DNA of 64,000 nucleotides from Bacteriovoracia bacterium (GTDB lineage Bacteria; Bdellovibrionota; UBA1018; JBFWNL01), in NCBI GenBank assembly GCA_050251055.1, contig JBFWNL010000010.1, positions 1-64,000 on the forward strand, given 5' to 3'. Below the pieces are notes generated by a model, which worked only from the letters and a program-made list of their open reading frames with translations, was not told where the DNA came from and searched no databases. The position numbers and the translations under genes are program-made. Shown piece after piece: positions 19,351-38,299 of the stretch. Each line of letters opens with the position of its first letter. Positions within the stretch are counted from its first letter, which is position 1.

Positions 19351-21300
<1,950 letters not shown>

Positions 21301-21851
21301 AGAAACTGCTAAACTCCTTCATTTCGATGAGAAGGTCAAGGCGCGCGAGCGCGGATCCGCGCGAATCATTTCGCCTTTTCCTCAAAGATTTCGTGCGAAA
21401 AACATGCCTGCATTCTGAGTGGGAAAGGAATTGGATAAGAACCTTAAGCGCAAGCCTAAAGCCAGCCTTAAAACCACTGTTTTATTTATTAATATCAAAT
21501 ACTTACAAATGTACCCAGAATTCGATTTCACCTCAGAGACAAACACACTGCCGGTTTCCGCGTCGTAGCCCCTCTGAGCCGCCCTATAAAACTTTCGTCG
21601 TTTTGGAACAAAAAAAGTCACCGCCGACGGAGTGGGAAGAATTAATTCAGATAAAACTTTTTTGGTCCATTATGCTTACTACACCAAACCCCACGAAATC
21701 AGATTTAAATACCTTATGGCTTGATGCGTTAAAAAAAAATTGACTAACGCTTCTTAAAATGAAATCAACGCATCGAGTCAAAATTCAAGGTTGGTGGGTG
21801 ACCTGAGAGATCTTCCCCCTAACGACTGATTTCCTCGAGGAGCGGATAGCG

Positions 21852-24800
21852 ATGCAGAACTTCCTTTCGACTTTTTTGGCCGCGGTTTTTCCTTCAGCCA
21901 TGATGGCTAACCTTCCCGCCCAAAATCTCACCGACATGGTCCTGGTAAATGACTCGAACCAGGCTTTTTACATCGATATTTTTGAACCCACCGCAACCCA
22001 GGTCAACGCGATCGTGCGTGGAGCGGCCTCGAACGATCCGAACAAAGCTGCCCGAATCACTCGATTCGAAAACGCCGTGGCATTCTGCGAACGCCAAGGC
22101 AAACGGGTGCCCACCCAGCAAGAGTGGATGGCTGCCGCCTCGAACTTGGGACGGAATCGTAACTACACGCTCCGCGGAGATGCCCTCCAAGACGCGCGGG
22201 GTAATCTACTGGTCAATATCAACGGAAACTACCGGGAAGCGGACGGCAGCACGGGCTCGGCGTCGCCTTACCTCACATCCGCCCTTGGGATCGACGCCAT
22301 CGGCACGGTTGGCATGACGGGAAACCGCGCCGAATGGGTGTATAACAATCGGGCCTCCGGACAGTGCGGATCCCGCTACGAAGAAAACAACATCGCGAAC
22401 GCACGCCTCGATCGAATTTGTTCCGCGCCGCTAAGCGATTCGGCGACGGTCCGTTGCGTAACCAACGCCAACGGTGCCGACACCGTAACCTATTCGGCCA
22501 ACGTATCGGGCGAACTTTTGACCTACCTAAATCAGATCGGTGGCCGTGGAAACGGAGCCCCCCCGGCAGTGAACCCACCGGCAGGCAATGGCCGGCCTAA
22601 CAATCCCCCGGCACGCCCCGGCAACAACCGCCCCGGCGATGACGAACCCGAAGCTCCGGTGCAGGGACCTCCACCCGAACCCAAGTACGACAATGAATTC
22701 GGAATCAACCCGGACCAGCCGCTCGCCGTGAATGACGCCCGCGTGCTGCCGGTGACCGACTACCTCATCATTTACCACGAAACCGCGGAGTATTTCGCTG
22801 AGGAGACGGGCCTAGAGCTGACCCCCGGCGTTTACGTCGCTTCCCGCGGCATCCTCAATACCCGCTCCGATCTGCAGAACCTGTTGATGGGCGGCGTGTG
22901 GACCAATCCATTCGGCGATCTGGCGCCGATTACGGCGGGTTATGCCAGTGGCGTAGCCGGGCCGGAAACCCGTGACGAAATCTGGGCCTCCCAGAACAAC
23001 CAGTATTTCCGGCTGCAAGACGGGAATAAGAAACTGCAAGCCATCGTCAAGGGCGTGCCCTACAAAATCTTCCCGGCCACCCTGGGCGCGTTCTTCCTTA
23101 CGAAGGACCGCAAAGTGACTTTCGTTCCCCGTAAGGCGGAAAACACGAAGTCCATGCAGCCCTTCAAGAACGTGAAGGTATTGAACGAAAACTATGTGAC
23201 CCTTACGCGCGACAAGCGCGGCCTGATCCTGCTCACCGAGTCCAAGCAGAAGAACATGGCGACCGTATCGATTTTGCGTTTTGACGGGAAGCTTACTCCG
23301 CTCGTGGACGTCGCCATGGAAGACGACCGCATTCGCGCGTCCGTTTCCGCGGACGGCATTTTCATCCCCACGAAGCAAGCCAAACCGGACGACCGCCAAG
23401 GCACCAGCATCGTCGGGTACATTCGCTTGGCGGACGACGGCTCGGTCATCGATCGCCGGGACAATATCTTCGAAACCCGCCCTGGCCAAGACTTGGTGTT
23501 TGAAGCGGAATGGCCCGAAGTCCGCGTGCGCAAAGCGCTCGGGGGCCGCATCTCTTATCGCGTGGCGGCCGACGGCTCGCTGCATGACAAGGCTCGAGGC
23601 GGCGACTCGGCGGCCACCCCGACCGGAGAAAATCTCCGTACGCTTAAAACCTTCGCCGAACATTGGACCGAAAAGGCCGCCAACGGCGACTTCGACGACC
23701 TGATGGATCGCGATGATTACATTGGCGACGCGCTGAACGTCATGCGCGCGAACAAAAACACTTGGGTGAACATTAACGGTCCGTTCGGCGTCGGCAAAAC
23801 CACACTGCTCAAGCTCATTGCCCGCACGGTCAACGCCCAGTCTGCTGCGAAGAAAGACTGGGTCGGCTACCAAGTATTCCACCTGCCGCTTTCCTCGGTG
23901 GCTGCCCTCATGGGCACCCAGGTCCAAGAAGGCGGGCAAGGCGGCGCGGCACCTCAGGCGGCCCCTAGCGCGGAGCAGCCCATTAACCGTCTACTCGAAG
24001 CGGTGGCGGGCAAGAAAGTCATCCTCGTGATGGACGACTTCCTGGACGACCCGAAGCTGGGACCCACGAACGTACAAAAATCGCTGGATGTATTCCTCGG
24101 CGCTTTCCGCGAAAAAATCGTCACTGGCCAATTGAAAATCGTGACCACGACGGACGCGCGCCTCTGGGTACAGGCCTTCGACCAAAACCCCGCCCTCGGC
24201 AACATGGTCACGACGGTCACCGTGCAGTCCGCCGGAATGACGGAATTGGCGATGATCCTGGGCGCCGAAATGCGCGCGCTTGAAAAACACTGGCGGTTGA
24301 AGTTCGACGCCGGCGTACTGGATGTCATCATCAACTCCGCCGCGGAAATCGATCCGACGACGCAAGAACCCCACCGTTCGATCAAGGCCGTGAACAAGCT
24401 GGCGTCGCTCCTAGGCGACGAAGTCAAACGCTCGGGCAGCCAGCTCATGATCGTGAGCGAGCAAAAGGCCCGATCCATCCTCCTTACGGGCGGATTAGTG
24501 GACGACGGCGTCGATGTCGAGCAACTCGGGCCTTATCTATCTTCGAAAATATTAGGCCAAGAAGAAGCAATCGATCGGATTTCCACTTCCATGCAAAGCT
24601 TGGCGCTCGGCGTGACCTCCCGCCGCGGAACGCGAGCGGTGCTCTTCCTGATCGGGCCCACGGGTACGGGCAAGACCTACGCTTCCGAGCTCATGGCGAA
24701 GTTCTTGAAAAAAGAAATCGTCAAGATCGATATGACGAAGTTCACGGGATTCACGGAACAGACCTTGTATACCCAAAAGATCAAGTCTCTGGGCGACAAG

Positions 24801-25478
24801 GACTACGTCCTTATCCTCGATGACATCGACAAGAGCCCGAACGCGAACAAGATCCTAACGGAATTGCGCCCGATCTTCGACGATGGCGTCTACGGACGCG
24901 GCACGAAGGACGAGCTTAGCTTCCGTAACGCGATCGTGATCATCACCGGCAACTACGCGGCCCAGCTGATATTGGACGCGAAGAACGACCCGCACGAAAT
25001 CATGAAGAATAAGGTGCGGGATTACGTGTTCGCCGACAAAACGCCGGATGCGGAAAAAATACCGAAGCACGTATGGTCCCGAATCGAGTCCTCGATCATC
25101 ATCTTTAAGGGCTTGAGCGTCGAGACCCTCATGCAAATCGCCCAGATATCGGCACAGCAGCTCAGTGCGGACATGCGCAATCGCTTCAATATTAGCGTCA
25201 CGCTGTCTAATCGTCTGATCGCGAACTTGGTCCACAAGAGCGCGGAAGCCGAGCTCGGTGCGGTTCCGGTGCAAAAGAAGATCGAGACCGAAGTGAAGGA
25301 AAAAATCGCCTTGCACATGGTCAAAGCCGAACGTGACGGCCGCCGCTACAAGATCCGGCAAATCGCCGTGAATCTCAACAGCGCCGACGAGATCATCTTG
25401 ACCGACGATCAACAGCCGGGTTTCGCCTCCGCCCTCAAACAGGCCGGTGAGCCCGCCGATGCAGGAGAACAACCATGA
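21852..25478 (+). CDS. FGE-sulfatase-like domain fused to a degenerate Clp/Hsp100 double-AAA+ module
   Basis: FYIDIFEPT, AFCERQGKRVPTQQEWMAAA, MTGNRAEWV; Pro/Asn linker; Walker A GPFGVGKT and GPTGTGKT; Walker B VILVMDD and VLILDD. Confidence 0.8.
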   Translation: MQNFLSTFLAAVFPSAMMANLPAQNLTDMVLVNDSNQAFYIDIFEPTATQVNAIVRGAASNDPNKAARITRFENAVAFCERQGKRVPTQQEWMAAASNLGRNRNYTLRGDALQDARGNLLVNINGNYREADGSTGSASPYLTSALGIDAIGTVGMTGNRAEWVYNNRASGQCGSRYEENNIANARLDRICSAPLSDSATVRCVTNANGADTVTYSANVSGELLTYLNQIGGRGNGAPPAVNPPAGNGRPNNPPARPGNNRPGDDEPEAPVQGPPPEPKYDNEFGINPDQPLAVNDARVLPVTDYLIIYHETAEYFAEETGLELTPGVYVASRGILNTRSDLQNLLMGGVWTNPFGDLAPITAGYASGVAGPETRDEIWASQNNQYFRLQDGNKKLQAIVKGVPYKIFPATLGAFFLTKDRKVTFVPRKAENTKSMQPFKNVKVLNENYVTLTRDKRGLILLTESKQKNMATVSILRFDGKLTPLVDVAMEDDRIRASVSADGIFIPTKQAKPDDRQGTSIVGYIRLADDGSVIDRRDNIFETRPGQDLVFEAEWPEVRVRKALGGRISYRVAADGSLHDKARGGDSAATPTGENLRTLKTFAEHWTEKAANGDFDDLMDRDDYIGDALNVMRANKNTWVNINGPFGVGKTTLLKLIARTVNAQSAAKKDWVGYQVFHLPLSSVAALMGTQVQEGGQGGAAPQAAPSAEQPINRLLEAVAGKKVILVMDDFLDDPKLGPTNVQKSLDVFLGAFREKIVTGQLKIVTTTDARLWVQAFDQNPALGNMVTTVTVQSAGMTELAMILGAEMRALEKHWRLKFDAGVLDVIINSAAEIDPTTQEPHRSIKAVNKLASLLGDEVKRSGSQLMIVSEQKARSILLTGGLVDDGVDVEQLGPYLSSKILGQEEAIDRISTSMQSLALGVTSRRGTRAVLFLIGPTGTGKTYASELMAKFLKKEIVKIDMTKFTGFTEQTLYTQKIKSLGDKDYVLILDDIDKSPNANKILTELRPIFDDGVYGRGTKDELSFRNAIVIITGNYAAQLILDAKNDPHEIMKNKVRDYVFADKTPDAEKIPKHVWSRIESSIIIFKGLSVETLMQIAQISAQQLSADMRNRFNISVTLSNRLIANLVHKSAEAELGAVPVQKKIETEVKEKIALHMVKAERDGRRYKIRQIAVNLNSADEIILTDDQQPGFASALKQAGEPADAGEQP

Positions 25479-26341
25479 GGCTAACCTCTTCGCGCTTGAA
25501 CATATTGAGCCTATCCGTGATCGCGCTGCTCGCGGCCACTACGTCCGCGGGTGACCCGCCGGGCGGAGGGATTCCTTCCGGCCCGGATTCCGGGATGACC
25601 CGCAAAAGCCGGACGACGGCGGTCCTATTCGTGCTGGACATCTCGAACTCAATGTCCCGCGGCCCGATCACGCGTGTGAAGCAGACGATCACCCAGGTCG
25701 CCAGCTCGGTATCACCGGAAACCGGCCTAGGATTGATTTCCTTCTGGGGCTGCAAGGAAACCGACAACAACCTCGATTTCCCCTTGGCGACGGGCGCGGA
25801 CAACCAGAAAAGCTTGATCCAGGTGGCCAGCGCCATCCAGACCAAGCACGGAACCAACATCTATAGCGCCCTGATGCTCGCGGAGAAGGAAATCCAGCGC
25901 GTGAAGGATTGGTGCGTGAACGTAATCCTCCTCAGCGACGGCTTCGAGAACTGCGGACCGGGCGACTTCCGCTCCGTGGTCGGACGCATCGTTGGCCAGC
26001 ACGGTAGCGGCTGCAATGCCGTTCACACCATCAGCGTGTCGACGATGGGCTGGGAGAATAAGGTGCTCAAGGAAATTTCCGAACTAGGGCACGGCTCCCA
26101 CCAGGAAGTCGAAGAAGAAAAAGAAATCGAAGTGGCGATCACGAAGGTAGTTGAAGCCGTCAAACATACCCAGAAGGTGAAATGGGCGGGCGACGGCAAG
26201 CCGGCGGAGAAGAAAGAGGGCGAAGAGGCCCCGAAAACCGACGACACGACGCCGCCAGCGGAAGCCCCGGCCCCCGACGGCCCTCCACCCGCCCCGGCCG
26301 AAGCCCCCATTAAGAAGCAGAAAGAAAACGGAAAGCAATAA
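25475..26341 (+). CDS. Exported VWA-domain protein with intact MIDAS
   Basis: Signal peptide; FVLDISNSM (DxSxS), GTNIYSAL, ILLSDG; Pro-rich tail; ATGA overlap with the upstream gene. Confidence 0.88.
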   Translation: MRLTSSRLNILSLSVIALLAATTSAGDPPGGGIPSGPDSGMTRKSRTTAVLFVLDISNSMSRGPITRVKQTITQVASSVSPETGLGLISFWGCKETDNNLDFPLATGADNQKSLIQVASAIQTKHGTNIYSALMLAEKEIQRVKDWCVNVILLSDGFENCGPGDFRSVVGRIVGQHGSGCNAVHTISVSTMGWENKVLKEISELGHGSHQEVEEEKEIEVAITKVVEAVKHTQKVKWAGDGKPAEKKEGEEAPKTDDTTPPAEAPAPDGPPPAPAEAPIKKQKENGKQ

Positions 26342-26374
26342 CCCCAACCCCAACGAGATAGAGGATCCCGAACC

Positions 26375-28840
26375 ATGAAGAGCCTGAAGAATTCCGTACA
26401 GAAACCGATGATTTTCGCGAGCCTGGGCTTGGCCCTGCAAGCCGCCACGGCCATCGGCGCCTCCGCTAACGACTGCGTCGTTCGCCATAAAGCGAACTTC
26501 GACGAAGTGAAACCCGCCGGCGGCGGATACTGCGTCGGCGTGATGAATCCCAACAACGACCGTTTCGCGGAAGACAAGGATTATAACTACGTTGAAGGCA
26601 GCCTGATCTGGTTGAGCGACCAGTCAGACAAGCGCATCAAGCGCATCGGCAACATCCCGATGCAGTGGCTAGTTCTCGATAAAGGCGTCATCGGCGTTTA
26701 CTCGTCCGGCGCCAACTACTCCATCCGGTACTGGAACTCCGACACCTTGGGCACGCGCACCTGCAAGAGCGACATTAAGGTGGAAGACGTCAAGAAGGGC
26801 ACGACCAAGATCGAGCTGGGCAAGAATTTCATCCGCGTCGCCTCCCCGAGCGGTAACGAAGATTGGTACGGCGGCGCCGACGGCAACTGCACGAGCAAAA
26901 ACGCGCGCGCCTTCATGAATTTGACCTCGGAAGATCGCCGCGTGCTCGAGAAATACGGCACGAGCGGGGGTACCGGTGAATCCAACGAACTCACCAACCC
27001 CGTGGTGGCCGCCAAGCTGCGCATGCCGAAGGGCCGCGACGGCGTGATGAAGAATATGATCCAGGCCATGCAAAGCCAAGACATCCGCTCTGTACTGCTT
27101 TGGGGAGCGGCCGGCACGGGCAAGACGACGATCGCTTACGGCATCGCCAAGCGCATCGCGCAGAAAGATCCGACGCTGCCGGAATGGATCCGCGACTGGA
27201 GCATCTATGCCATCGATCTCTCCAAAGTGAACGAAGAAGGCGCCCTGGGCGTCGCGCAGAAGAAGATGACCGAGATCATCCAAGCCGCCGCCGGTAAGAA
27301 GGTGATTCTCTTGATGGACGAAATCCATCAGCTGCTAGGCCTCGGCGCCCGTGAGTCGGGATCCTCCGACGTTACGGATGCGCTCAAGACCCCGCTCGCC
27401 AACGGCCAGATCTGCATCATCGGAACCCTGACGGGCGACGTTGCCGAAAAGGGCCGTTTCGACGCGAACTCGGCGTTCCAACGCCGCTTCTCCCAGATGA
27501 TGATCGACGAGCCGAGCGACGAAGTGCTGCGGGAAATCTTCCGTGACTATGCCGACGAGATGACGAAGAAGTACAACGTCACTTACGACGACTTAGCCTT
27601 AGAAGAGATGATCAAGCTCACGCGCCAGTATGGCAACGGCCAGAAACACCCGGCCGTAGGCATCAACTTCCTCGATCAACTTTCCGCCTCGAAGGAAAAG
27701 AACGAGGGCGAAGCTTACGCCATCGTGGTCGCCGACATTAAAGCCAAAGTCGGCCTCATGTTCAACGTGGCGGCGCTGAAGCCGGTTGACCCGGCGAAGA
27801 AGGAAAAAACCATGGGCCAGAAGGCCGTGGTCTTCAAGGCCGAAATCAGCAAGCAGTTCATCGGCCAGACGTCTGCCCTAGACGTCGTGCAGCGGGGTCT
27901 CACGATCTACGCCGCACGCGGGGCTAAGCCCGGCAAGCCTCCGGTGTTCCTGTTCTTGGGGCCCTCCGGCGTGGGGAAGACTTACCTCGCCGAATTGACC
28001 GCCAAGTACTTCAACATGCCTTATAAGGAATTCAAGATGGAAGGCTATCAGCAGGAGCACAGCGTGGAGTCCCTGAAGGGTTCCCCGCAAGGTTACGTTG
28101 GCTCCCAAGAAGGCGGCGCGCTGCCGAACTGGATCAGCCAGAACCCGACTTCCGTGCTGAACTTCGATGAAATCGACAAGGCCCACCCACGCGTCCTGCA
28201 ATATCTAATGGGATTGTTGGAGCAGGGCGTGGTGCAGGACGGCAAGGGTAACGAGCACACCTTCCGCGGCGTCGTATTCCTCACTTCGAACTACCTGCTC
28301 GAAGTGATCGAGGAATGGGATCGCGCGAATGGAATCGAGGACAACGAGTGGAAAGCCACCAATGGCGACGCGAAACCGCCGTCGACCGGCATCGGATCCT
28401 ACACTCCGGAACAGCTCAAGCAGCACCTCATGAACCTGCTCGAGAAGCCGGGTGAAAACGGACAAGATCAGAAGATCGGGTCGTTCATCACCGGCCGTAT
28501 CGGGCTTGAGAACATCGTCATCTTCAACCACTTCAACAAGGAGCAAGCGAAGCAAGTCGCGATGCTCGAAGTGAAGAGCGTGCTCAAGAAGATGAAGGAA
28601 GACTACAAGAAAGACGTCGTGCCGGATCCTGCCCTCGTCGAGCACATCGTCAGCAACGGCTTCAGCTTCAAGTACGGCGCCCGCCCGGTTCGCGGCATGG
28701 CGGTGAGCTTGATCGAAGGACCGGTCGCCGAAAAGATGATCGAAATGGAAGGCCAGGAAGACCAGATCAAACGCCTGGTCGTCGGCATCCAAGGCGCTGG
28801 CCGCAGCGCCCGCGGCGTCGTACGGGTCGAGACGGAGTAA
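26375..28840 (+). CDS. ClpA/B-like double-AAA+ ATPase with N-terminal signal peptide
   Basis: GAAGTGKT, LLMDEIH, AFQRRF; GPSGVGKT, GYVG, FDEIDKAHP, LTSN, YGARP; N-terminus MKSLK...IFASLGLALQAATAIGASA. Confidence 0.88.
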   Translation: MKSLKNSVQKPMIFASLGLALQAATAIGASANDCVVRHKANFDEVKPAGGGYCVGVMNPNNDRFAEDKDYNYVEGSLIWLSDQSDKRIKRIGNIPMQWLVLDKGVIGVYSSGANYSIRYWNSDTLGTRTCKSDIKVEDVKKGTTKIELGKNFIRVASPSGNEDWYGGADGNCTSKNARAFMNLTSEDRRVLEKYGTSGGTGESNELTNPVVAAKLRMPKGRDGVMKNMIQAMQSQDIRSVLLWGAAGTGKTTIAYGIAKRIAQKDPTLPEWIRDWSIYAIDLSKVNEEGALGVAQKKMTEIIQAAAGKKVILLMDEIHQLLGLGARESGSSDVTDALKTPLANGQICIIGTLTGDVAEKGRFDANSAFQRRFSQMMIDEPSDEVLREIFRDYADEMTKKYNVTYDDLALEEMIKLTRQYGNGQKHPAVGINFLDQLSASKEKNEGEAYAIVVADIKAKVGLMFNVAALKPVDPAKKEKTMGQKAVVFKAEISKQFIGQTSALDVVQRGLTIYAARGAKPGKPPVFLFLGPSGVGKTYLAELTAKYFNMPYKEFKMEGYQQEHSVESLKGSPQGYVGSQEGGALPNWISQNPTSVLNFDEIDKAHPRVLQYLMGLLEQGVVQDGKGNEHTFRGVVFLTSNYLLEVIEEWDRANGIEDNEWKATNGDAKPPSTGIGSYTPEQLKQHLMNLLEKPGENGQDQKIGSFITGRIGLENIVIFNHFNKEQAKQVAMLEVKSVLKKMKEDYKKDVVPDPALVEHIVSNGFSFKYGARPVRGMAVSLIEGPVAEKMIEMEGQEDQIKRLVVGIQGAGRSARGVVRVETE

Positions 28841-28846
28841 TAAGCC

Positions 28847-29785
28847 GTGCGCCGCGGATTAATCGCGCTAGCCGCTGCTCTAACATGGATGATTTCGGTG
28901 ATGGCGGCGCCCGGGATGGGCGCCGCCGAACCGCCGGAAGTGGCCGCCTTGGCCAAGTTCCGCGTGAAAATGCGTTCATTGAAAGCGGCGGTTGGCTACG
29001 TCGATTACAAAGTCGAAGTCAAAGGGGCGAATTACAGCAGTTTCTGTAACTTATTCCTGGTCGGCGAAAACCTGGCATTGACCGCATCTCATTGCATCAG
29101 CACGCAGGCCCAATGCGATACTGCCACTGCGTACTTCTCCGAGGACGGTGATAGCCCGACTCACCACTATGCTTGCAAGAAAGTGTTGGGTATCGGCGCT
29201 CCGTACGACGACAACCTGAAAAACCAAGATGACTTTTCGCTTTTGGAGCTGGAGGGCAAGCCCGGTTCAGATCTTTTGACCGCACCGCTGCACTTCATGC
29301 AGCCCACCGAAGGTCAGAAGTGGCTCTACGTTTTCCTGCCGAAGTACGACACGAAGACCCATATCAAGGATAACATCTCGAGAAGTCTGTCGATTTGCAT
29401 GGCTCGTCGCTCGCACGTGGAATCCGAGATCGGATCTTGGGAAATTAGGCCGCTGCCCAATTCGGACGAACCCTGTCATCTCATGCGTGGAAACTCCGGC
29501 GGACCGATTTTTAACATTCAAGGAAAGATTATCGGAATAGCCACTTGGCTCAAAGCCGCGGAAGGATCGGTGGGAGAGCTGAATGATAACCGCGTGATCG
29601 AAGCGAGAGGTCCTACGATCCAGTCGGTAACCAACAAGCTGGCATCATTGCGCCTGCTTTACCCGGTGGACGCGCCCAAGAACAAACCTGACCCGGAAAT
29701 GGGCCTAGGTACCGCGCCCGAAAAAGAAATCGTCACGATTCCCGCGACCAAGGCCGAACGCAAAAAAGCCCTCGAAGAAAAATAA
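28847..29785 (+). CDS. Exported trypsin-like (S1) serine protease
   Basis: Signal peptide; ALTASHC, DDFSLL, GNSGGP catalytic triad. Confidence 0.88.
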   Translation: MRRGLIALAAALTWMISVMAAPGMGAAEPPEVAALAKFRVKMRSLKAAVGYVDYKVEVKGANYSSFCNLFLVGENLALTASHCISTQAQCDTATAYFSEDGDSPTHHYACKKVLGIGAPYDDNLKNQDDFSLLELEGKPGSDLLTAPLHFMQPTEGQKWLYVFLPKYDTKTHIKDNISRSLSICMARRSHVESEIGSWEIRPLPNSDEPCHLMRGNSGGPIFNIQGKIIGIATWLKAAEGSVGELNDNRVIEARGPTIQSVTNKLASLRLLYPVDAPKNKPDPEMGLGTAPEKEIVTIPATKAERKKALEEK

Positions 29786-29789
29786 CTCG

Positions 29790-31757
29790 TTAACTGGATG
29801 GCGAATCCGGCGCGCCGCCGGTCAATTCCTTGCGCTTTTTCTGGACATCCAAATACATGGACATTAGCTCGGCTTGTCGGCCGGAATCCTGGTTGGCCGC
29901 CGCTTCGGCGAGATCCGCCTCGATTTTCTGCGAAAACGCACCCCATGCGCGCGCGAGTCCCTTGCTTAGCGCCAGCCGGATATCTTCGGAGGGGGTGCCG
30001 GCTTCCGCGATAAAAGTCTCCACGAGCAGCGACCGCAAGGCCGGGGGCAGCTCCTGCTCAAAAAGCAAGGCCTGCACGGCTGCCGGATCTTGGCGGCTGG
30101 TTTCCCATTCCGGCCGGGCGAGCAAGCGCGAAGCACAGTCTTTGAAAGCCGGATGCTGGAAAAGCTCGCTGAGCGGTGTCTGGGGCGGCAAATTCAGTTG
30201 GGCGTGGTTCCAATCGGTTTGAAACTCCGCCCACTTCGCCAGCGCGACCATCAATAACTTATCGGAGGGCCCCGGTTTGGCGCTCGCGGAAACGGGACGC
30301 GCGGCCGGGCGCACCGCCATGCCCACGCGAGGGCCGCCACCGGCCGGTGAATTCGGGTACGCCGGGGGCGCGGACTTCAGCGGCGGCAAGCCAAAGAGAT
30401 CGCGCCGAATACCCAAGCGCTGCTCGAGCGCGCTCACGCGGACTTCTCGTCCCACCGGATCCTGATAGAGGGCAAGCCACTGACCGATTTTTTTGATCGC
30501 TTGCGTCTTTTGCTCGGGCCCGTGGGTGGCAAGCTGCACTTGCTCGTCGATGCGCAGATCCAGCAAGGGCTTCGCCTCGCGCACCATCGCCTGCAGCCGT
30601 TCGGCGCCGCTCGGCTGCTCGCCTTGCGCGGGAAGCGCCGCGAATTCGTCGGGGTCGATATCCTCGGGCAAAAAAGCGGCGTGGACGATCACGCCTTGGC
30701 CAAGCGCCGTCTCCATCGCCCGGTCGGTGGCGTCACGGCCAGCCGTATCGCCGTCAAACAGAAGCACAATTCGGCTCGTAAGGCGCTGAAAGATCTGCAA
30801 GTGCTCGGTCGTGAGCGCGGTCCCACAGGTCGCCACTGCCTGCTTTAAGCCCGCCTTATGCAAGCCGAGGACATCGAAATAGCCTTCGACCAAGATCAGC
30901 TCGTCCAGCTCGCGAATATGCTTTTTGGCCTGAAATAGCCCAAAGGCGAGTTTACTTTTACGGAAAAGCGGTGACTCAGGCGAGTTGAGGTACTTCGGCG
31001 TATGGGCCCCATCCACCGAAGAGGAAGCATCGCCCGGAAGGATGCGCCCGCCAAAGCCCGCCACGCGCCCACGCAGATCCAAGATGGGGAACATCGCGCG
31101 ATTTCGAAATAGATCGAAATGACCCGTAACACTCGACTTCGCGCCCGGAGAAGAAGGCCGAATGAGCCCCAGCCGCGCGGCCATTTCCAAAGGCGCTTTC
31201 GCGTCCATCAGGCGCTTGGCCAAGCCTTCCCATTCCGCAGGCGCATAGCCCGCATAAAATTCCCGCTCAAGATCTCCGGTGATCCCGCGCTCGTCCAAAT
31301 AGCCACGCGCTTCCGCGCTCTGGGCGAGCGAATTACGGTAAAACGCCGCCGCGAAGCGATTGAGCTTGAACGCCACCGCCATCTCGTCGCGCTGTCCTCC
31401 CGAGCCAGGACCGTCCGCGCCGCTCGCCGAGCGCTTGATCACGCCCTCGAGCGAAATCCCCGCACGCGATGCGAGCTCCTCGACCGCCTCGATGAACGTG
31501 ATCCCGTGCAGATCAACCAAGAAGGAAATCATGTCGCCACCGGCCTTGCAGCCGTAGCAGTGGAAAAGCTGTTTCTGCTCGCTCACGCTGAAGGAGGGCG
31601 AACGCTCCGAGTGGAAGGGGCAGAGACCCGTATAGTTCGCGCCCTGCTTACGCAAAACCACGTGCTCGCCGACGATCTCGAGGATGCTGACCTTGTCCTT
31701 GATCTTACGCAGAAGTTCGGGCGAGATTTTGGACGAGCTGCCGGCGGACTGGCTCAT
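29790..31757 (-). CDS. dnaG: DNA primase
   Basis: CPFHSERSPSF...CYGC zinc finger, FRNRAMFPI, KYLNSPE, LVEGYFD, FDGDTAG; start re-called at the ATGA overlap with mpg. Confidence 0.97.
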   Translation of the reverse strand: MSQSAGSSSKISPELLRKIKDKVSILEIVGEHVVLRKQGANYTGLCPFHSERSPSFSVSEQKQLFHCYGCKAGGDMISFLVDLHGITFIEAVEELASRAGISLEGVIKRSASGADGPGSGGQRDEMAVAFKLNRFAAAFYRNSLAQSAEARGYLDERGITGDLEREFYAGYAPAEWEGLAKRLMDAKAPLEMAARLGLIRPSSPGAKSSVTGHFDLFRNRAMFPILDLRGRVAGFGGRILPGDASSSVDGAHTPKYLNSPESPLFRKSKLAFGLFQAKKHIRELDELILVEGYFDVLGLHKAGLKQAVATCGTALTTEHLQIFQRLTSRIVLLFDGDTAGRDATDRAMETALGQGVIVHAAFLPEDIDPDEFAALPAQGEQPSGAERLQAMVREAKPLLDLRIDEQVQLATHGPEQKTQAIKKIGQWLALYQDPVGREVRVSALEQRLGIRRDLFGLPPLKSAPPAYPNSPAGGGPRVGMAVRPAARPVSASAKPGPSDKLLMVALAKWAEFQTDWNHAQLNLPPQTPLSELFQHPAFKDCASRLLARPEWETSRQDPAAVQALLFEQELPPALRSLLVETFIAEAGTPSEDIRLALSKGLARAWGAFSQKIEADLAEAAANQDSGRQAELMSMYLDVQKKRKELTGGAPDSPSS

Positions 31758-32410
31758 GCCCGCCCCGCTTTCCGCGACGCTGGTGTCGACCACGGGCGCG
31801 CGGCTCGGTTTTGGCGAGACCGGCTCACGTACGGGTTACCCGCGATGAAATAGCGCCACTCTTGCTCGATCGCCTTCGTAATGCCCACGCGCGGGGACAC
31901 GTGGATCGCGGCGGACCGAAAGCCGTCGTCATACACAAAAAGCTCCGGGCCGCGTAACGACGCCCGGTTGTGCTTCATCCGGATGCCCATCGCCCGACAA
32001 AGTCTTCCCGGACCGTTCGTCCAATCGCGGCGGCTTGGACCGCGACGACGGCGCATCAGGGCGAAGCCCTCGAGCGGCTCCACCGCGCGGATCAGGACCG
32101 CGCCCGGCACGTGCTCGGCTTCGGTCACGAAATTGAGCATCTCGTACATCCCATAGATAAAATAAACGTAGGCGATTCCCGCCGCCTCGAACATCGGCGA
32201 GGTACGCGCGGTTTTTCCCGTCGCTGAATGCGAAGCGGGATCGTCCCCCATATAAGCTTCGGTTTCCACGATGCGCCCCGCGGTGATCTGCTCATACGGG
32301 CCGCGCGCCTGGCGGACCACCAGGACTTTTCCCAGTAAATCGCGCGCAACCTCGTGAGTATCGCGCGCAAAAAAACGACGGGGGAGCAGCTTTCGCCGTC
32401 CCCCGTCCAA
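31754..32410 (-). CDS. mpg: DNA-3-methyladenine glycosylase (MPG/AAG)
   Basis: VARDLLGK, GRIVETEAY, AYVYFIYGMY, AVLIRA, NGPGRLC, PRVGI; TTG start inferred. Confidence 0.92.
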   Translation of the reverse strand: MDGGRRKLLPRRFFARDTHEVARDLLGKVLVVRQARGPYEQITAGRIVETEAYMGDDPASHSATGKTARTSPMFEAAGIAYVYFIYGMYEMLNFVTEAEHVPGAVLIRAVEPLEGFALMRRRRGPSRRDWTNGPGRLCRAMGIRMKHNRASLRGPELFVYDDGFRSAAIHVSPRVGITKAIEQEWRYFIAGNPYVSRSRQNRAARPWSTPASRKAGRA

Positions 32411-33175: not shown

Positions 33176-34270
33176 CTAGGACACCGGCTCCGTGGTCTTA
33201 ACCACGATAAAACGCCCCACGCCGGCTCCATGGACGCCTAAGTCCGCCTGGACAAAGGTCAGGACCCCGGCCGTGGGGTCGAATCGGAAAGAAAATAGGC
33301 CTTTATTGGTCGAGTCATAAATCAGGGCCGTCTGGCCATCCGGCAAGAAATAAATCGATGCGGCGGAGCCCAGACTACTGACCGTAACGGACGCCACGGC
33401 GGGGGTCTGCACCACCCCATGACTGTCGAGGCGAAACACTTCGACTAGCCCCGTCCCGGTGGTGGCTTGCCACAGGTACTGCCCAGACGGATCGATTCCG
33501 CGTGCGCCCGCGCTCAATCCCCCCGCACTGCCGGCGAGCACGAATCCGCCCGTATTGCGATCGATTGTATAAGTATAGACAACGTTCGACGTCGAGCGCA
33601 GGACGTAATCACCCTCCCCCTGGAATAGGGCGCCTCCCCCGGAGTACCCTTGAAGAAAGGTTGTCACCCCGGAAGCCGCGTCCACCCCGTAAAGATACGT
33701 CTCCGCGGTCTCGGCCCGATTCAAAAAGAAATACTTTCCTTCGGGATGACCAAAACCTCGAATCGTGCTTCCTGAATTAAAGAAAATCGTCGGATTCAAG
33801 CTGGAAGCCGTTAAGCTCCCGTCGTCGGACAAAACTCTCAGGGTTCGAATACCCACCAGTGGTATCGACACGAAAAGAAAACGTTGGTCGACAGAAGCGC
33901 GAACCTCCTGAACTATCCCCGACCCTAAATTTAATGAAGACGCGAAGGCGGGCTCACCCGTGGCTGGGTTGAGCGCATAAGTGTCTACCGTCGGGGGGTT
34001 GACGATCGGTGCCATCCAAAGGAATCGGCCATCCCGAGAAGCCTCGAGTTTATCCGGGTTCGTGTTTTGAGTGGTGACACTCCAGGTCTGGCGGACAAAC
34101 GCACCCGTGGAAGGATTGATCTCGAAGGCCCCCAGCGTCTGTTGGCTAACCGCCGCCATATAGAGAAAATAGTGCACCTTTACGCCGTGGCTGAACTTCG
34201 CGCCGCATCCTGTCCCACCCGCCAGAAGCGATGCGGCAACGAACAGGGGTAGATGAGGAAAACGGGCCAT
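33176..34270 (-). CDS. Lactonase-like beta-propeller lipoprotein
   Basis: Lipobox-like GTGC; repeated blades (DGRFL, DQRFL, EGKYF, SGQYL, DGQTA). Confidence 0.65.
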   Translation of the reverse strand: MARFPHLPLFVAASLLAGGTGCGAKFSHGVKVHYFLYMAAVSQQTLGAFEINPSTGAFVRQTWSVTTQNTNPDKLEASRDGRFLWMAPIVNPPTVDTYALNPATGEPAFASSLNLGSGIVQEVRASVDQRFLFVSIPLVGIRTLRVLSDDGSLTASSLNPTIFFNSGSTIRGFGHPEGKYFFLNRAETAETYLYGVDAASGVTTFLQGYSGGGALFQGEGDYVLRSTSNVVYTYTIDRNTGGFVLAGSAGGLSAGARGIDPSGQYLWQATTGTGLVEVFRLDSHGVVQTPAVASVTVSSLGSAASIYFLPDGQTALIYDSTNKGLFSFRFDPTAGVLTFVQADLGVHGAGVGRFIVVKTTEPVS

Positions 34271-34349
34271 GGGGTCAGTATACCCCGCAGCAGGTATTTC
34301 TTGAAACGGGGGAAATCATGCTACTGCTTTTCATAGGGAGATCCCGTTT

Positions 34350-35234
34350 ATGAAATATAGCCACCGGAACCTACTTTGTATTTCCGCCTTACTCGCCGTG
34401 CTGAGCGGCTGCGCCGCCAGCATCGATGACGCCGAAGAAATCGGACAGTCCGTCGGAGACGCCATGGCGTCGGTGGATGAGTCGGCCGGGAACAATTCGG
34501 GAGGATTCGGGTGGCTGCCGTTTGATTCGGGCCGCGCGGTTCGCTACGCGGAACGCACGCCGATGGATACCCTGCAAAACTGGCTAGTCCCCGAAACCCA
34601 AGCGGCCGCATGCTGGGCCACGGCGACATTCGGCACCTGCACGGCCGGCGTGATGACCCGCACCTTCGGTGGCTGCACCTTGGTCGGCGTCACCCTCAAC
34701 GGCACGGTAACGCTGACTTTCAGCGACACCGCTTGCTCGATGGCTAGCACCGGAAATTCCGTCTCCCGTTCGCCTAACTTCACGCTCACGGGACGACGGG
34801 GAGCGACCCTCACGATTTCCCCGGACAACGGCGGATCACAGACGGTCACCCGCACGGGCGCGAACGCGTTCACCTACAGTAATTCCGGAATCCGGCGCGT
34901 AGCGACTAGCGTTGGCGGCGCCACGCTCTTCGATTTATCGTTTAAAACCACGACGGCCATTGGCGTAACGGGAGCAACACGCGCGACCCGCGTACTAGAC
35001 GGCGGCACCTTGCAAATCACCCACAACACCAAGAGTTACGTCGTGGCGCTCAGCCCTTCGCAGGTGACCTGGAGTTCGTCCTGCAGCTGCGCGGTTTCTG
35101 GGACCTGGAGCGGCACCGTCAGCGGGACCTACAGCGGAAACTTCACGGTGGAAATCACGGGTTGCGGCACGGCCAAAGTAACGTCCAACGGCGCTAGCGA
35201 AGACATCACGCTGGATCGTTGCGCGGGAGTTTAA
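34350..35234 (+). CDS. Thr/Gly/Cys-rich putative lipoprotein
   Basis: Lipobox LSGC; extended beta-rich body with several Cys. Confidence 0.65.
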   Translation: MKYSHRNLLCISALLAVLSGCAASIDDAEEIGQSVGDAMASVDESAGNNSGGFGWLPFDSGRAVRYAERTPMDTLQNWLVPETQAAACWATATFGTCTAGVMTRTFGGCTLVGVTLNGTVTLTFSDTACSMASTGNSVSRSPNFTLTGRRGATLTISPDNGGSQTVTRTGANAFTYSNSGIRRVATSVGGATLFDLSFKTTTAIGVTGATRATRVLDGGTLQITHNTKSYVVALSPSQVTWSSSCSCAVSGTWSGTVSGTYSGNFTVEITGCGTAKVTSNGASEDITLDRCAGV

Positions 35235-36157
35235 TCCCAGAGCGCGACGAGGAATCCGCCGCCACCGGCGCCGGTCAGTTTCGTCGCGAGCGCGCCTTGG
35301 CGCTTGAGTTCCGCGTGCAACGCAGAAACCGAATCCGGCACGAGCCCCCAGCCTTCGTAACAGCCTTGGCCTTGGGACATCGCCGAAGCCACTCGTTCCA
35401 AACCGCGCGCGCGATCTTCGGATCCGCCCCGGCCAAAAAGCTGTAAACCTTCGATCGCCTCGGCCGTCGCGGCCTTCATCTGGCGATCCAGCGCTTCGCC
35501 CCGCGCGGGATCCAATTCCGCCACCCGCTTCACCTTCTCGATGCAATCGCTGGTACGGCCGCGCACGCGCGTATCGTGGAATGTAAACTTCGGCAGGCCG
35601 CTCGCGAGCAGGAGCGGGGTAATGCCCACCTCCCCGGGTTCGGTCGTACGCCGGTAAACGATCGGTTGACCGCTGGCGACGACAGCCACGTCCATGCCGC
35701 TGCTTTTGCCGTGAAAGTAGTCCTCAAGCTCGGTAGCCACGGCCACCGGCTTTTCGAAGGCATACCCCGTGCGGGCGGAAAACCAACGGGTGACCGCCAC
35801 GCATAACGCGGCCGATGAACCCAGGCCGCCTCCCACGGGGATCGTGCTCTGTATCCGCAGCGTTCCGCCCGGAGCTTTCGCCCCGGACTTTCGCTCTAAC
35901 TGTCGCACCAGCTCGAGCACCGGCGAATAAATATGGTCACGACCGGAACGCCCCACCTTCAACTCACCGGCGCCGTCCGCCTCGAAAGAAAGCGTGAGGG
36001 AATACTCCGGATGTGGCATCGCGATCGCCGAACCCCCGCGCAGCACGGTGTGCTCGCCCGTCAGTACCCATTTCCCGGGTACCGTGACCTGGCTAGCGAG
36101 GAGCCCGCGATCGACGTTCGACTCGGCGGTGCGGAATGTGTCCGACGCGAGAATCAT
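35231..36157 (-). CDS. mvk: Mevalonate kinase (GHMP family)
   Basis: PGKWVLTGEH, PVGGGLGSSAA, HGKSSGMD, KLTGAGGGG; within the mevalonate operon. Confidence 0.82.
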   Translation of the reverse strand: MILASDTFRTAESNVDRGLLASQVTVPGKWVLTGEHTVLRGGSAIAMPHPEYSLTLSFEADGAGELKVGRSGRDHIYSPVLELVRQLERKSGAKAPGGTLRIQSTIPVGGGLGSSAALCVAVTRWFSARTGYAFEKPVAVATELEDYFHGKSSGMDVAVVASGQPIVYRRTTEPGEVGITPLLLASGLPKFTFHDTRVRGRTSDCIEKVKRVAELDPARGEALDRQMKAATAEAIEGLQLFGRGGSEDRARGLERVASAMSQGQGCYEGWGLVPDSVSALHAELKRQGALATKLTGAGGGGFLVALWD

Positions 36158-37311
36158 GACAACAGCTTCGCTCCGTCGCCCTGCGGGTCTTCGAGAAATT
36201 CCAGGTCAGGAAATTTCACGGTCAATAGCTCACGCCACTGCGCGGCCTTGGACTTCGCCACGAGCAGATGTACGTTCGGCCCGGCGTCCAACGTGACAAT
36301 CGGCGGAACCTGGTTATGGTCAAGCGCGGCGTTGTAAAGCGTAGCGAGCCACTTGAGGATCTCGATCGAGCGCGGCTCAAAGTAAGTGAACGGACGCTCG
36401 CAGGTATGAAAAAGACTGTGCATCTCCCAGGCTTCCGCCCAAGCGATCTTGGCGACGCCCGTGAGATCGCCTGAGGCGAGCGCGGTCTCAAGCTGGGTCA
36501 TGCGTCCGGCCACGCGATCCACGCGCCCCGTCCAAAGCGGTGACTGCAGCACGCGCAGGTGCGCTTCGCTGGAAGACACCTGCTTGCTTTCACGGCTCAC
36601 GAGGAGCACGAAATCGACCATCTCGGGCATCTTTGACGTTACGGCGGCGGCACGCTCCCCTTCCCACTTCACCCAAGGGCCTTCGAGCGAGCGGCACGAG
36701 CTGCCCGAACCTTGGCGGGAGAGCGCGGCAAAGGCCCGCCGAAAATCCGCTTGGGTTTGCCAAACCTTTTCGAAAGCCTTCACGTCGCGCGCGAAGGTCG
36801 CGGCGGCGGCGAGGGTGATGGCGGCAAAGCTCGAAGCACTGGACGCGATGCCGGCGGCGGCCGGAAAGGAATTGCAGGTGCGCCAGTTGATATCGCAGTC
36901 GAGATCAAACTGTAGACCGTGGGCGCCGAAGACCTCCGGCACGAAGCGCTGAACGCGCTCAATCTGCTTGTTCACCTTGGTCACGCCATGGTCGTTCAGC
37001 GCCGGCGCCATCCAAGGGGACTGCGGGGCGCGGGACTTAGCGGCCGCCGCCGATTTCGCGGCGCCTTTTTCCGCGGCAGCGGCGGTCAGCTTTTCAAGTT
37101 CCATGCGGGGAAGCTCTGGGATCCAGCGGAATACACACTGTTTTCCCTTCGTCGGCATGCGCTCGAACTCCACCACGGTCTGCAGCGAATTCAGGGTCAT
37201 CGACAGGCTGCCGTTCGCGGGCAGGTTCTGGGAAGCGTCCTTCTTTCCCATGTATTTAATGATCGCGATGTTAGAGGGCGCGCTGGCGAAAATCGACGTT
37301 TTGGTGCTCAT
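36154..37311 (-). CDS. mvaD: Diphosphomevalonate decarboxylase
   Basis: APSNIAIIKYMGK, FPAAAGIASSAS, RQGSGSSCRS, TLDAGPNVH. Confidence 0.92.
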   Translation of the reverse strand: MSTKTSIFASAPSNIAIIKYMGKKDASQNLPANGSLSMTLNSLQTVVEFERMPTKGKQCVFRWIPELPRMELEKLTAAAAEKGAAKSAAAAKSRAPQSPWMAPALNDHGVTKVNKQIERVQRFVPEVFGAHGLQFDLDCDINWRTCNSFPAAAGIASSASSFAAITLAAAATFARDVKAFEKVWQTQADFRRAFAALSRQGSGSSCRSLEGPWVKWEGERAAAVTSKMPEMVDFVLLVSRESKQVSSSEAHLRVLQSPLWTGRVDRVAGRMTQLETALASGDLTGVAKIAWAEAWEMHSLFHTCERPFTYFEPRSIEILKWLATLYNAALDHNQVPPIVTLDAGPNVHLLVAKSKAAQWRELLTVKFPDLEFLEDPQGDGAKLLS

Positions 37312-37321
37312 ATGGTCTCCC

Positions 37322-38299
37322 TCATTTCAGGCCGTCCTCGAATTCAATTCCTTGCCAAAGCAGTTTCAGTCCCCGGGCTTCGGCGGTTTGGCGGAGCGCC
37401 GCCGCTTCCGCGGGCCCTAAGCGCGCGGGATCCACGAGCGCCATCATATTATCCGCCAGCAGGGCGCCCCCGCCCTTCACGCCGAGCACGCCGGGAAGCG
37501 CGCGCAAGGCGCGACGATCTTCGGCGGCCTCCGCTAACTCCAGGCCCGCTTCGGACAATGCATTCGCGTAGTCGTCCATCGCCCGACCGAGCGCGGGCAA
37601 ATCGGTTTCCTCGAGCGCGCGCTGGCCGCCGACGGCAACCGCGGTCAAGCGATCGATCAAGTCTCCCGAGTGCTTCGGAAATCCCAAACGGCCAAGCGCC
37701 TGCAGATGCTCGTGCGTGGGAACCTTGCGCCCGGGCTTGCCCGTCGCCGAGAAAACCCAGAACTGCGAACCCCACCCCCGGCGGCAGTCTTCGATCTTCT
37801 CCGCTTCCAAGTGACAAACGGCCAAACCACCGTTGATCTGGGCGGCGAGGTCGGCGCCGCTCGGAGGCAGGGCCTGATCACCGGTCAAGCGGCGGTAGAG
37901 GCGCCAAGCCGCCCATGCGTTCAATTCGGACTTCCGGCCATTGGCTTCCATCACGGCCTGGTAAAGCAGCGCGAACTCGGCGGTGGATCCACCGAACCCC
38001 CCGGCACCCCCGTGAGCGTCGCGGAATTGAAACCACGGGACATTTAACTTCTCATGGGCGGCCCACTTCAATAATAGGCCAGCCGGACTTTCGGGATGGA
38101 ACCCCCCGAGCATTTCCGGCGTTGCTTCCCAGTCGGGCTCCACGACGAGGTGAAAGCGCGGACCGACGGCGGCGACGATCGCGGGCTTGCCCAGGAGGGC
38201 GATGTATTCGCCCAGTAAGAAAATTTTCCCGCCGACGGAGTACTCGCGGCTAGAGCTCGACGGATTCGTTCGCGCGTGCGGGTGGTACGCACTGGTCAC
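37322..38299 (-). CDS. Divergent GHMP kinase, probable phosphomevalonate kinase
   Basis: GKIFLLGEY, GFGGSTA, PSGADLAAQ, KGGGALLAD; operon position. Confidence 0.65.
   Translation of the reverse strand: MTSAYHPHARTNPSSSSREYSVGGKIFLLGEYIALLGKPAIVAAVGPRFHLVVEPDWEATPEMLGGFHPESPAGLLLKWAAHEKLNVPWFQFRDAHGGAGGFGGSTAEFALLYQAVMEANGRKSELNAWAAWRLYRRLTGDQALPPSGADLAAQINGGLAVCHLEAEKIEDCRRGWGSQFWVFSATGKPGRKVPTHEHLQALGRLGFPKHSGDLIDRLTAVAVGGQRALEETDLPALGRAMDDYANALSEAGLELAEAAEDRRALRALPGVLGVKGGGALLADNMMALVDPARLGPAEAAALRQTAEARGLKLLWQGIEFEDGLK

Follow-up and report, generated by a model that had tools for sequence, protein, structure and literature searches.

The nearest functional precedent for the protein described here is eukaryotic. 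Plasmodium HSP101 is reported to be a ClpB-like ATPase that carries a signal peptide and works, within a compartment of host origin, as the motor of PTEX (Plasmodium's translocon for exported proteins). Bacterial AAA+ unfoldases, in turn, are taken to be cytoplasmic because the periplasm holds no ATP. Here we describe a gene, which we call B (26375-28840, + strand), in a 64,000-nucleotide stretch of the genome of a Bacteriovoracia bacterium (assembly GCA_050251055.1, contig JBFWNL010000010.1, positions 1 to 64,000; hereafter the window). Judged from its sequence, B encodes a two-ring Clp/Hsp100-like ATPase with a Sec-type leader, in which a beta-rich, four-cysteine N-domain replaces Clp_N, and it is the third gene of a four-gene cassette, A-V-B-P. 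What appears to be new is a clade of Clp/Hsp100 proteins whose predicted location and gene partnership are likewise new.

HSP101 resembles B in being of the Hsp100 type, in carrying a signal peptide and, as proposed for B, in working outside the cytosol of its producer in a compartment bounded by the victim. It differs in being eukaryotic and in working with EXP2 and PTEX150; its similarity to B amounts to 162 bits, and it is not among the rows of the tree presented below. HSP101 presumably also keeps a Clp_N-type domain and an M-domain. The genes linked to B encode a von Willebrand factor A (VWA) protein and a protease, and no pore. Torsins, the other near precedent, share with the predicted B the combination of an AAA+ module, a signal peptide and an oxidising compartment (the lumen of the endoplasmic reticulum), yet torsins are eukaryotic single-ring proteins whose catalytic equipment is complete only with activators. 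Other described systems resemble the cassette in gene content. MoxR-VWA pairs such as NorQ/NorD are reported as AAA+ proteins encoded with a protein that carries a VWA domain and its metal-ion-dependent adhesion site (MIDAS), and we take the Mg-chelatase subunits BchI/BchD to follow the same logic, in which an active and a degenerate AAA+ protein are combined with a VWA domain. Both are cytoplasmic and built on single-ring AAA+ modules of the MoxR/BchI type, whereas the cassette is of the Clp two-ring type and every one of its components bears a leader. The vWA-MoxR ternary conflict systems likewise use single-ring MoxR-type AAA+ proteins, with cytoplasmic vWA proteins and effectors, and are not described as secreted in the main text of the paper (Kaur et al. 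2020, PMC7159879). Membership of the cassette in this last class was considered and rejected: its ATPases are two-ring and Clp-type, and all its components have leaders.

Architecture and predicted export of B

Gene B is an open reading frame (ORF) of 821 amino acids (aa) that opens with an ATG, 9 nucleotides (nt) downstream of a Shine-Dalgarno-like GAGGA. The upstream stop is just 11 in-frame codons away from this ATG (open frame of 832 aa), and further in-frame Met codons are found at residues 12 and 57. Pfam recognises AAA (aa 240-343), AAA_lid_9 (387-445), AAA_2 (524-647) and ClpB_D2-small (PF10431, aa 721-794, 28535-28756; 36.4 bits against a cut-off of 21.9), the last with the sensor-2 motif GAR. 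The first AAA+ module with its lid (D1) spans aa 216-470 (27020-27784) and the second (D2) aa 480-720 (27812-28534), all on the + strand. Torsin matches aa 484-544 weakly (24.2 bits, under its cut-off of 27), and we claim no membership of that family. At E ≤ 0.01 no Pfam match to Clp_N (PF02861) was obtained in B, and aa 1-215 match no Pfam family at all. The ClpC and ClpB proteins among the matches to B in a word index of 5.8 billion proteins carry PF02861; the two close relatives found there, P0002 and P0003, lack it.

Residues 1-31 (26375-26467) form a predicted signal peptide of the Sec/signal peptidase I (SPase I) type and read MKSLKNSVQKP / MIFASLGLALQAATAIG / ASA, then NDC. A net charge of +3 precedes a 22-residue uncharged run; the h-region counts 17 aa, and the c-region is A-S-A. 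An earlier note on this DNA had reported a leader ending in A-S-A before NDC, and the predicted signal-peptide geometry recurs in all seven orthologues. Leaders were analysed through conservation across orthologues and through our own heuristics (charge, hydrophobicity and uncharged run). With these heuristics B looks like a Sec/SPase I substrate, a class expected to combine a positive n-region with an h-region of 7-15 hydrophobic residues and small residues at -3 and -1, and to lack a lipobox. The seven leaders are not conserved in sequence; they are conserved in form, each with a short n-region, positive in most of them, and then an uncharged stretch of hydrophobic residues that ends in x-x-Ala. 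The cleavage-site triplets are ASA, VWA, LYA, SFA, TFA, ALA and AFA, so that Ala stands at -1 in 7/7 and A, V, L, S, T, A and A at -3. Net charge ranges from 0 to +3 before the hydrophobic run and from 0 to -4 in the 15 residues that follow it (7/7), a distribution that, by the positive-inside rule, places the bulk of the protein outside. A more general comparison gave the same picture: 12 of the 13 AAA+ proteins from the cassettes reach a 10-residue Kyte-Doolittle maximum of at least 1.95 and begin their uncharged run within the first 13 residues, whereas 14 canonical Clp proteins stay at or below 1.76 and in 10 of them the run begins at residue 15 or later. A lipoprotein reading was rejected, there being no lipobox before the first Cys. 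On this evidence it seems likely that B is genuinely exported.

An alternative is that the N-terminus is an uncleaved anchor or a peripheral helix that holds the rings in the cytoplasm, the cassette then being a membrane-tethered AAA+/VWA/protease system for remodelling or defence. AAA+ proteins need ATP, and conflict systems that combine vWA, AAA+ and peptidase components in the cytoplasm are described in PMC7159879; those systems use MoxR-type AAA+ proteins, however, and the word "secreted" is absent from the main text of that paper. PADLOC also gave domain-level matches on the D2 module of B (PDC-M37B, 97 bits; DolB, 80 bits), yet they are limited to the generic AAA_2 module, and the scan as a whole returned generic AAA and protease domain matches only. 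The leaders themselves speak for the opposite topology: their charges predict N-in/C-out in all seven B proteins, Ala is invariant at -1, and the h-regions are short, with one leader in seven reaching the 19-residue threshold for a transmembrane (TM) segment. No second hydrophobic or TM-like segment was found beyond the leader in any cassette protein. Finally, all four gene products of the cassette bear a leader, including an S1 protease with what we take to be the cysteine pattern of a secreted enzyme. We consider a cytoplasmic, anchored B unlikely. The earlier note had allowed for precisely this outcome, and the charges, the Ala at -1, the cysteines and the secreted-type neighbours all point away from it in silico.

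The N-domain (aa 32-215, 26468-27019) is specific to the family and carries Cys 34, 53, 130 and 172, all four conserved in 7/7 members. In six of the seven proteins the first of these lies 2-3 residues past the predicted cleavage site, and the AAA core of about 600 aa is free of cysteine in 5/7. The spacing of 18-76-41 residues includes no CxxC pair, a pattern that favours disulfides over a zinc site like that of ClpX; a Cys4 zinc site of that type was rejected on this argument. An AlphaFold2 model from a seven-row alignment (predicted local distance difference test, pLDDT, 83.2; predicted TM-score, pTM, 0.71) is composed mainly of beta strand. Together with the Pfam results and the cysteine positions, it agrees with the earlier description of a beta-rich, four-Cys domain without Clp-N repeats.

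Comparisons of this model with known folds gave generic matches only. Foldseek against the PDB returned nothing at E ≤ 1e-3, the best entry being 2hu8 (1.3e-3, TMq 0.37). A wide VIA-align search peaked at Z 8.0 (3s25, root-mean-square deviation 3.6 over 118 residues) and continued with many propellers at Z 6-8, the usual background. The ESM Atlas gave, by structure, TM-scores of 0.44-0.55 to PD40, Reg_prop and DUF5050 propeller clusters, and by features no usable match. The part-propeller matches are thus spread over S9 peptidase propellers, TolB, PD40 and Reg_prop clusters and Tsi1, at background-level scores. As the matches are generic, we call the domain propeller-like and family-specific and name no relative; the model may resemble part of a beta-propeller. 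Structure prediction followed by Foldseek, which the earlier note had suggested, therefore yields a confident beta model and no specific relative.

Motifs of both rings were aligned with those of E. coli ClpA and ClpB, of the ClpA-like protein and ClpB encoded in the same genome, and of ClpC, TssH, ClpK and ClpL. D1 has Walker A (GAAGTGKT), Walker B (DEIH), the sensor-1 Thr and RRF; D2 has GPSGVGKT, the pore loop GYVG, FDEIDKAHP, TSN, the Arg finger GRI and GARP. B therefore contains what defines a class-1 Clp/Hsp100 protein, that is, two AAA+ modules each with Walker A and B, sensor-1 and Arg finger, plus sensor-2 in D2. Every element of the two catalytically intact rings listed in the earlier note is present in this alignment, as far as sequence can tell. 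The distance between the two Walker A motifs is 285 aa, to be compared with 281-287 in ClpA (E. coli 281), 399-401 in three ClpB proteins and 337 in ClpC. It is ClpA-like and unlike that of ClpB or ClpC, meaning that there is no M-domain, again as first proposed. The D1 pore loop reads AGAKYRGEFE in ClpB and NEEGALGVAQ in B, so the absence of the KYRG loop also holds, and the missing aromatic is common to all seven members. Since D1 lacks this aromatic, the label "translocase" rests on the pore loop of D2 only.

The long insertion with PPSTGIGSY, noticed earlier at the site of the ClpA docking loop, was also recovered. In D2, B has about 22-28 more aa from sensor-1 to the Arg finger than the references have, and we delimit a family-conserved insert at aa 646-710 (28310-28504), at the position of the ClpP-docking loop of ClpA and ClpC. 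The tripeptide for docking to ClpP is not conserved in the family: at the position of [LIV]-G-[FL] the seven members read NGI (B of the window), LGI, LKI, LGI, LNI, LGL and LKI, with Gly in 4/7 and the full hydrophobic-Gly-hydrophobic pattern in 3/7. Across the seven proteins both rings keep the Walker A Lys, the Walker B Asp-Glu, sensor-1, the Arg finger and sensor-2 without change or almost so, and the same holds for an aromatic residue in the D2 pore loop. These share only 25-41% identity, so the recurrence of the features of B among them is not due to chance.

A rare family outside the described Clp subfamilies

The family as known here has at least seven members with one common architecture; the collection scans list best matches, so more may exist. 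In the word index, the only close relatives of the whole of B, at 510-561 bits, were P0002, with 800 aa and 38% identity, and P0003, with 792 aa and 37% identity, the latter belonging to a metagenome-assembled genome (MAG) of the Bacteriovoracaceae, and the next matches were ordinary ClpC proteins at about 220 bits. The N-domain alone retrieved from the same index only the query among 1240 candidates. A phmmer search of the N-domain against 1.84 billion representatives gave four proteins including the query (the others being P0121, P0122 and P0123), and the seventh member lies in genome G283. Among 401 genomes of the phylum, three contain the N-domain: the genome of the window (G000), G283, which has it twice, and one with a weak match interrupted by an internal stop. 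In a scan of 185,579 species genomes the N-domain was covered in 2 of the best 80 loci. A scan of metagenome contigs gave one family locus among the matches listed (L137), whose matched stretch is identical to locus L015 and which is thus not an independent member. As a side observation, P0123 (locus L016, G283 contig C30) has three AAA modules: D2 and D2-small are duplicated in tandem in this protein of 1158 aa.

Profiles of the known subfamilies recognise B far under their cut-offs. The best NCBIfam match is ClpA (TIGR02639, 257.4 bits against 993.15; NF008263, 183.3 against 1350), followed by ClpV1/TssH (TIGR03345, 240.1 against 884.95), ClpB (TIGR03346, 231.3 against 1232.1) and ClpK/ClpG (NF033606 and NF033607, 154.4 and 153.7 bits against 1900 each). 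Nowhere in this genome does TIGR03345 give a ClpV/TssH match over its cut-off. PDB sequences stand at roughly equal distance from B: ClpC (189 bits), ClpB (186), Hsp104 (183), ClpA (171), ClpE (167) and HSP101 of PTEX (162; entries 6e10 and 6e11).

We built an unrooted maximum-likelihood tree of 27 rows and 757 columns under LG+C20+F+G4, from which ClpG, ClpE, Hsp104 and HSP101 were left out and which includes two very long branches. All seven B proteins fall into a single clade (95/97). A branch of length 1.26 with support of 100/100 has ClpA, ClpB, ClpC, ClpK, ClpL and TssH on one side, and the B clade, the clade of A proteins and a VWA-Clp fusion (see below) on the other; the two TssH references group away from B. 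By these sequence criteria the B family is a new and very rare clade outside ClpA, ClpB, ClpC, ClpK, ClpL and TssH, the subfamilies in the tree. The phylogeny had been proposed in the earlier note as a check on membership of a described cytoplasmic subfamily, and the distant profile scores and the 100/100 branch both place B elsewhere.

The nearest described subfamilies nevertheless share much with B. E. coli ClpA, like B, has two AAA+ rings without an M-domain, a nearly equal Walker A spacing (281 vs 285 aa), GYVG in D2, the sensor and Arg-finger motifs and a D2-small domain. Unlike ClpA, B has no Clp_N and no KYR loop in D1, does not conserve the IGL tripeptide, has about 25 extra residues after sensor-1, carries a predicted signal peptide and a Cys-bearing beta domain, and falls on the other side of the 100/100 branch. 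ClpB/Hsp104 and ClpC give the highest PDB sequence matches and share with B the order of modules and ClpB_D2-small, but B has neither their M-domain nor their Clp_N.

The A-V-B-P cassette and its setting

Genes A, V, B and P form an operon on the + strand (21852-29785) with intergenic gaps of -4, 33 and 6 nt. Their order is kept in 4/4 loci for which context is available: the window, L015 (a Bacteriovoracaceae MAG), and L013 and L016 (both in G283). A profile of the N-terminal region of A and the N-domain of B pick out the same two genomes with strong matches among the 401. A scan for promoters and terminators across 21200-30000 gave 2 promoter-like and 15 terminator-like sites, numbers that do not exceed those of shuffled sequence.

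Gene A (21852-25478, +, 1208 aa) encodes, according to Pfam and NCBIfam and in this order, a hydrophobic N-terminus, a partial FGE-sulfatase domain, a Pro/Gly/Asn linker, a propeller-like region (about aa 296-600), a partly degenerate Clp-like D1, and a D2 with ClpB_D2-small. The D2 Walker A is intact in 5/5 A proteins, which have no GYVG loop and have the sensor-2 Arg replaced. A model of aa 296-600 (pLDDT 72.8) met generic propeller matches only (Foldseek best E 3.3e-5, TMq about 0.25-0.34; VIA best Z 7.8). With hhalign no relation was found between the N-terminal regions of A and B (probability 0.3%). Aa 1-290 (21852-22700) are peculiar to the A protein of the window: they comprise the partial FGE-sulfatase match (aa 72-166, 34.9 bits, four Cys) and then the Pro/Gly/Asn-rich linker, and three A orthologues of about 907-921 aa begin directly at the propeller-like region.

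Gene V (25475-26341, +, 288 aa) starts 4 nt inside the end of A, overlapping its stop, and combines a signal-like N-terminus, a VWA domain (Pfam VWA and VWA_2) and a charged, low-complexity C-terminal tail. Its MIDAS is intact (D55-x-S57-x-S59, T127, D155), and four cysteines are conserved. The tail (26180-26341, about 50 aa) is rich in Lys, Glu, Asp and Pro and ends in G-K in all three aligned V proteins. It is pure speculation on our part that this unstructured tail could be what the AAA+ pore engages. A complex prediction for the B N-domain with the VWA domain of V scored 0.00 (mark 0.32), a result that gives no answer and is not evidence either way.

Gene P (28847-29785, +, 312 aa) begins with a GTG 6 nt past the stop of B and encodes a signal-like N-terminus and a trypsin-like S1 protease (Pfam Trypsin and Trypsin_2). 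The triad of His (TASHC), Asp and Ser (GNSGGP) is invariant in 6/6 homologues. P has six cysteines, two of which, Cys 67 and Cys 83, flank the catalytic His at a distance of 16 residues; such a pair around the His is, we presume, the pattern of secreted chymotrypsin-type enzymes.

A second, diverged cassette lies in the same genome (contig C1:226820-239172; L136:820-13172, -). Its seven genes all have hydrophobic N-termini and encode, in order, an S1 protease of 308 aa, three paralogues of 475, 454 and 455 aa without Pfam matches, an A-like ATPase of 1013 aa, a VWA-Clp fusion of 1085 aa and an S1 protease of 330 aa. In the fusion, only the Walker A of D2 is canonical. As independent evidence, this fusion speaks for joint action of VWA protein and ATPase.

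The cassette of the window sits between rpoD (19351-21300, -; identified by translation) and dnaG (29790-31793, -), the latter convergent with P. In 18 of 19 dnaG loci from relatives within the same taxonomic order, rpoD directly follows dnaG on the same strand, and the 19th locus ends too early. The cassette, being placed between the two genes on the opposite strand, is therefore an insertion into a conserved operon, and this insertion together with the patchy distribution of the family points to horizontal spread. The genome, 93.5% complete, amounts to 3.77 Mb on 21 contigs; two DNA sequencing runs of one landfill-metagenome study may be the source of this DNA, and no RNA run with it was listed. 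The nearest named homologues of its DnaG (48% identity) belong to Bdellovibrionales, Oligoflexia and Bdellovibrionota MAGs.

Proposed function and competing explanations

We tentatively propose that the cassette encodes a Sec-exported module of unfoldase and protease, of a Bdellovibrionota bacterium and probably fuelled by prey ATP, a reading that we hold plausible, if somewhat short of probable. A, V, B and P would be made together from one operon and exported by Sec. Mature B would form a ring after export, possibly mixed with A, hydrolyse ATP in both rings and thread its substrate through the pore of D2. Choice of the target would fall to V and the two propeller-like N-domains, of A and B, and P would cleave what B unfolds. 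As the periplasm of the producer lacks ATP, such a machine would be useful only where prey ATP can be reached; the site of action would be the prey cytoplasm or a permeabilised prey envelope, and the device would serve prey-fuelled digestion or remodelling. In B. bacteriovorus, exported MIDAS adhesins are reported to act at the junction between predator and prey, and secreted serine proteases to reach the prey (PMC11003981).

Several observations weigh against this proposal. The first concerns the fuel: no ATP is known in the bacterial periplasm, and a special setting would have to be assumed for an AAA+ motor that is exported. The second concerns the motor. The D1 pore loop of B is one residue shorter and without an aromatic at that position in 7/7 members; across five A proteins the Walker A Lys of D1 is lost in three and the Walker B varies; and the D2 Walker B of the window A is DD. 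Given these losses, threading by both rings is not to be expected. P, moreover, is a small S1 protease with no evident chamber or PDZ domain, and its coupling to an unfoldase accordingly has no precedent. Physical contacts among A, V, B and P are suggested by gene order and by one fusion, export and leader cleavage of B by our own heuristics, and the disulfides of the N-domain by cysteine conservation. The lifestyle is a further point. This uncultured lineage may be predatory, and mevalonate genes and tryptophan 2,3-dioxygenase (TDO), discussed below, are also found in non-predators, TDO in 2 of 14 control genomes.

The lack of ATP in the periplasm would fit an exported B that is not driven by ATP and acts in the envelope as a holdase, scaffold or adhesin partner, its nucleotide sites serving only folding or assembly. 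The missing aromatic of D1 and the partial degeneration of A agree with such a role. In contrast, the ATPase motifs of B are near-invariant among seven proteins of 25-41% identity, while the paralogue A shows relaxed selection within the same cassette; we find this explanation improbable.

Exported B could also be the motor of a translocon, like HSP101 in PTEX, that pushes predator proteins across the prey membrane or pulls prey proteins out. HSP101, as said at the outset, is reported as a signal-peptide ClpB-like ATPase in a host-derived compartment. The PDB sequence matches to B include its chains 6e10 and 6e11 (162 bits), and the D2 pore loop and all ATPase motifs of B are intact. No membrane-pore component was found in the cassette, however, where no protein has a TM-like segment past its leader, and a protease gene is invariably linked to it; and B lacks the Clp_N and M-domain that HSP101 presumably keeps. 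A translocon motor has, in our estimate, little probability. An annotation artefact, in which a start further downstream leaves the leader untranslated and B an N-terminally odd cytoplasmic Clp, is scarcely credible: beyond the existence of Met 12 and Met 57 we found nothing to support it, the conserved N-domain starts at Cys 34 straight after the leader and depends on residues that precede Met 57, the leader opens seven independent orthologues out of seven, GAGGA precedes the ATG at 26375 by 9 nt, and a start at Met 12 would keep both the h-region and the A-S-A site.

Returning to the prey-fuelled unfoldase and protease module, a stronger form of it, for which we would claim less, is that this is the first bacterial Hsp100/Clp unfoldase system working outside the cytoplasm of its producer and run on prey ATP, a prokaryotic counterpart of HSP101 in PTEX. 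A predator would then send out the two-ring motor with its degenerate paralogue, a MIDAS adaptor and a serine protease, so as to unfold and digest proteins of the prey or transfer them across its membrane; we regard this as conceivable and rather doubtful. Phrase searches of the literature, supplementary files apart, found no periplasmic, secreted, extracytoplasmic, exported or extracellular bacterial AAA+ or Hsp100 protein; "periplasmic ATPase" occurred in the literature searched only for ESX/EccB and in unrelated contexts; and the main text of a comparative genomics study of Bdellovibrionota (PMC11656739) contains none of the terms AAA, Clp, ATPase, von Willebrand or signal peptide. A family that is conserved, keeps its catalytic motifs intact and bears a predicted export signal and a disulfide-type N-domain challenges the rule that these enzymes are cytoplasmic only. 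If B is active after export, there must be a compartment in which exported enzymes tap ATP, the obvious source for Bdellovibrionota being the prey. If true, this would add a new principle to bacterial predation and give PTEX a bacterial parallel. The cassette also lends itself to natural comparisons for AAA+ mechanism: two Clp-like paralogues side by side, one predicted to be active and one degenerate, a fusion of VWA with Clp, and a variant with three modules.

As to lifestyle markers, the mevalonate pathway and TDO are reported as predator-enriched and not predator-exclusive (PMC4646340). TDO is encoded in this genome. The window contains a mevalonate-pathway cluster at 35231-40627 (-), in which 3-hydroxy-3-methylglutaryl coenzyme A (HMG-CoA) reductase and type 2 isopentenyl diphosphate (IPP) isomerase score over the NCBIfam cut-offs; a mevalonate kinase-like and a diphosphomevalonate decarboxylase-like gene score just under theirs, with a 325-aa gene without match between them. 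Next to this cluster, at 33176-35234, two divergent genes without NCBIfam match (364 aa, -, and 294 aa, +) have lipoprotein-like or signal-like N-termini.

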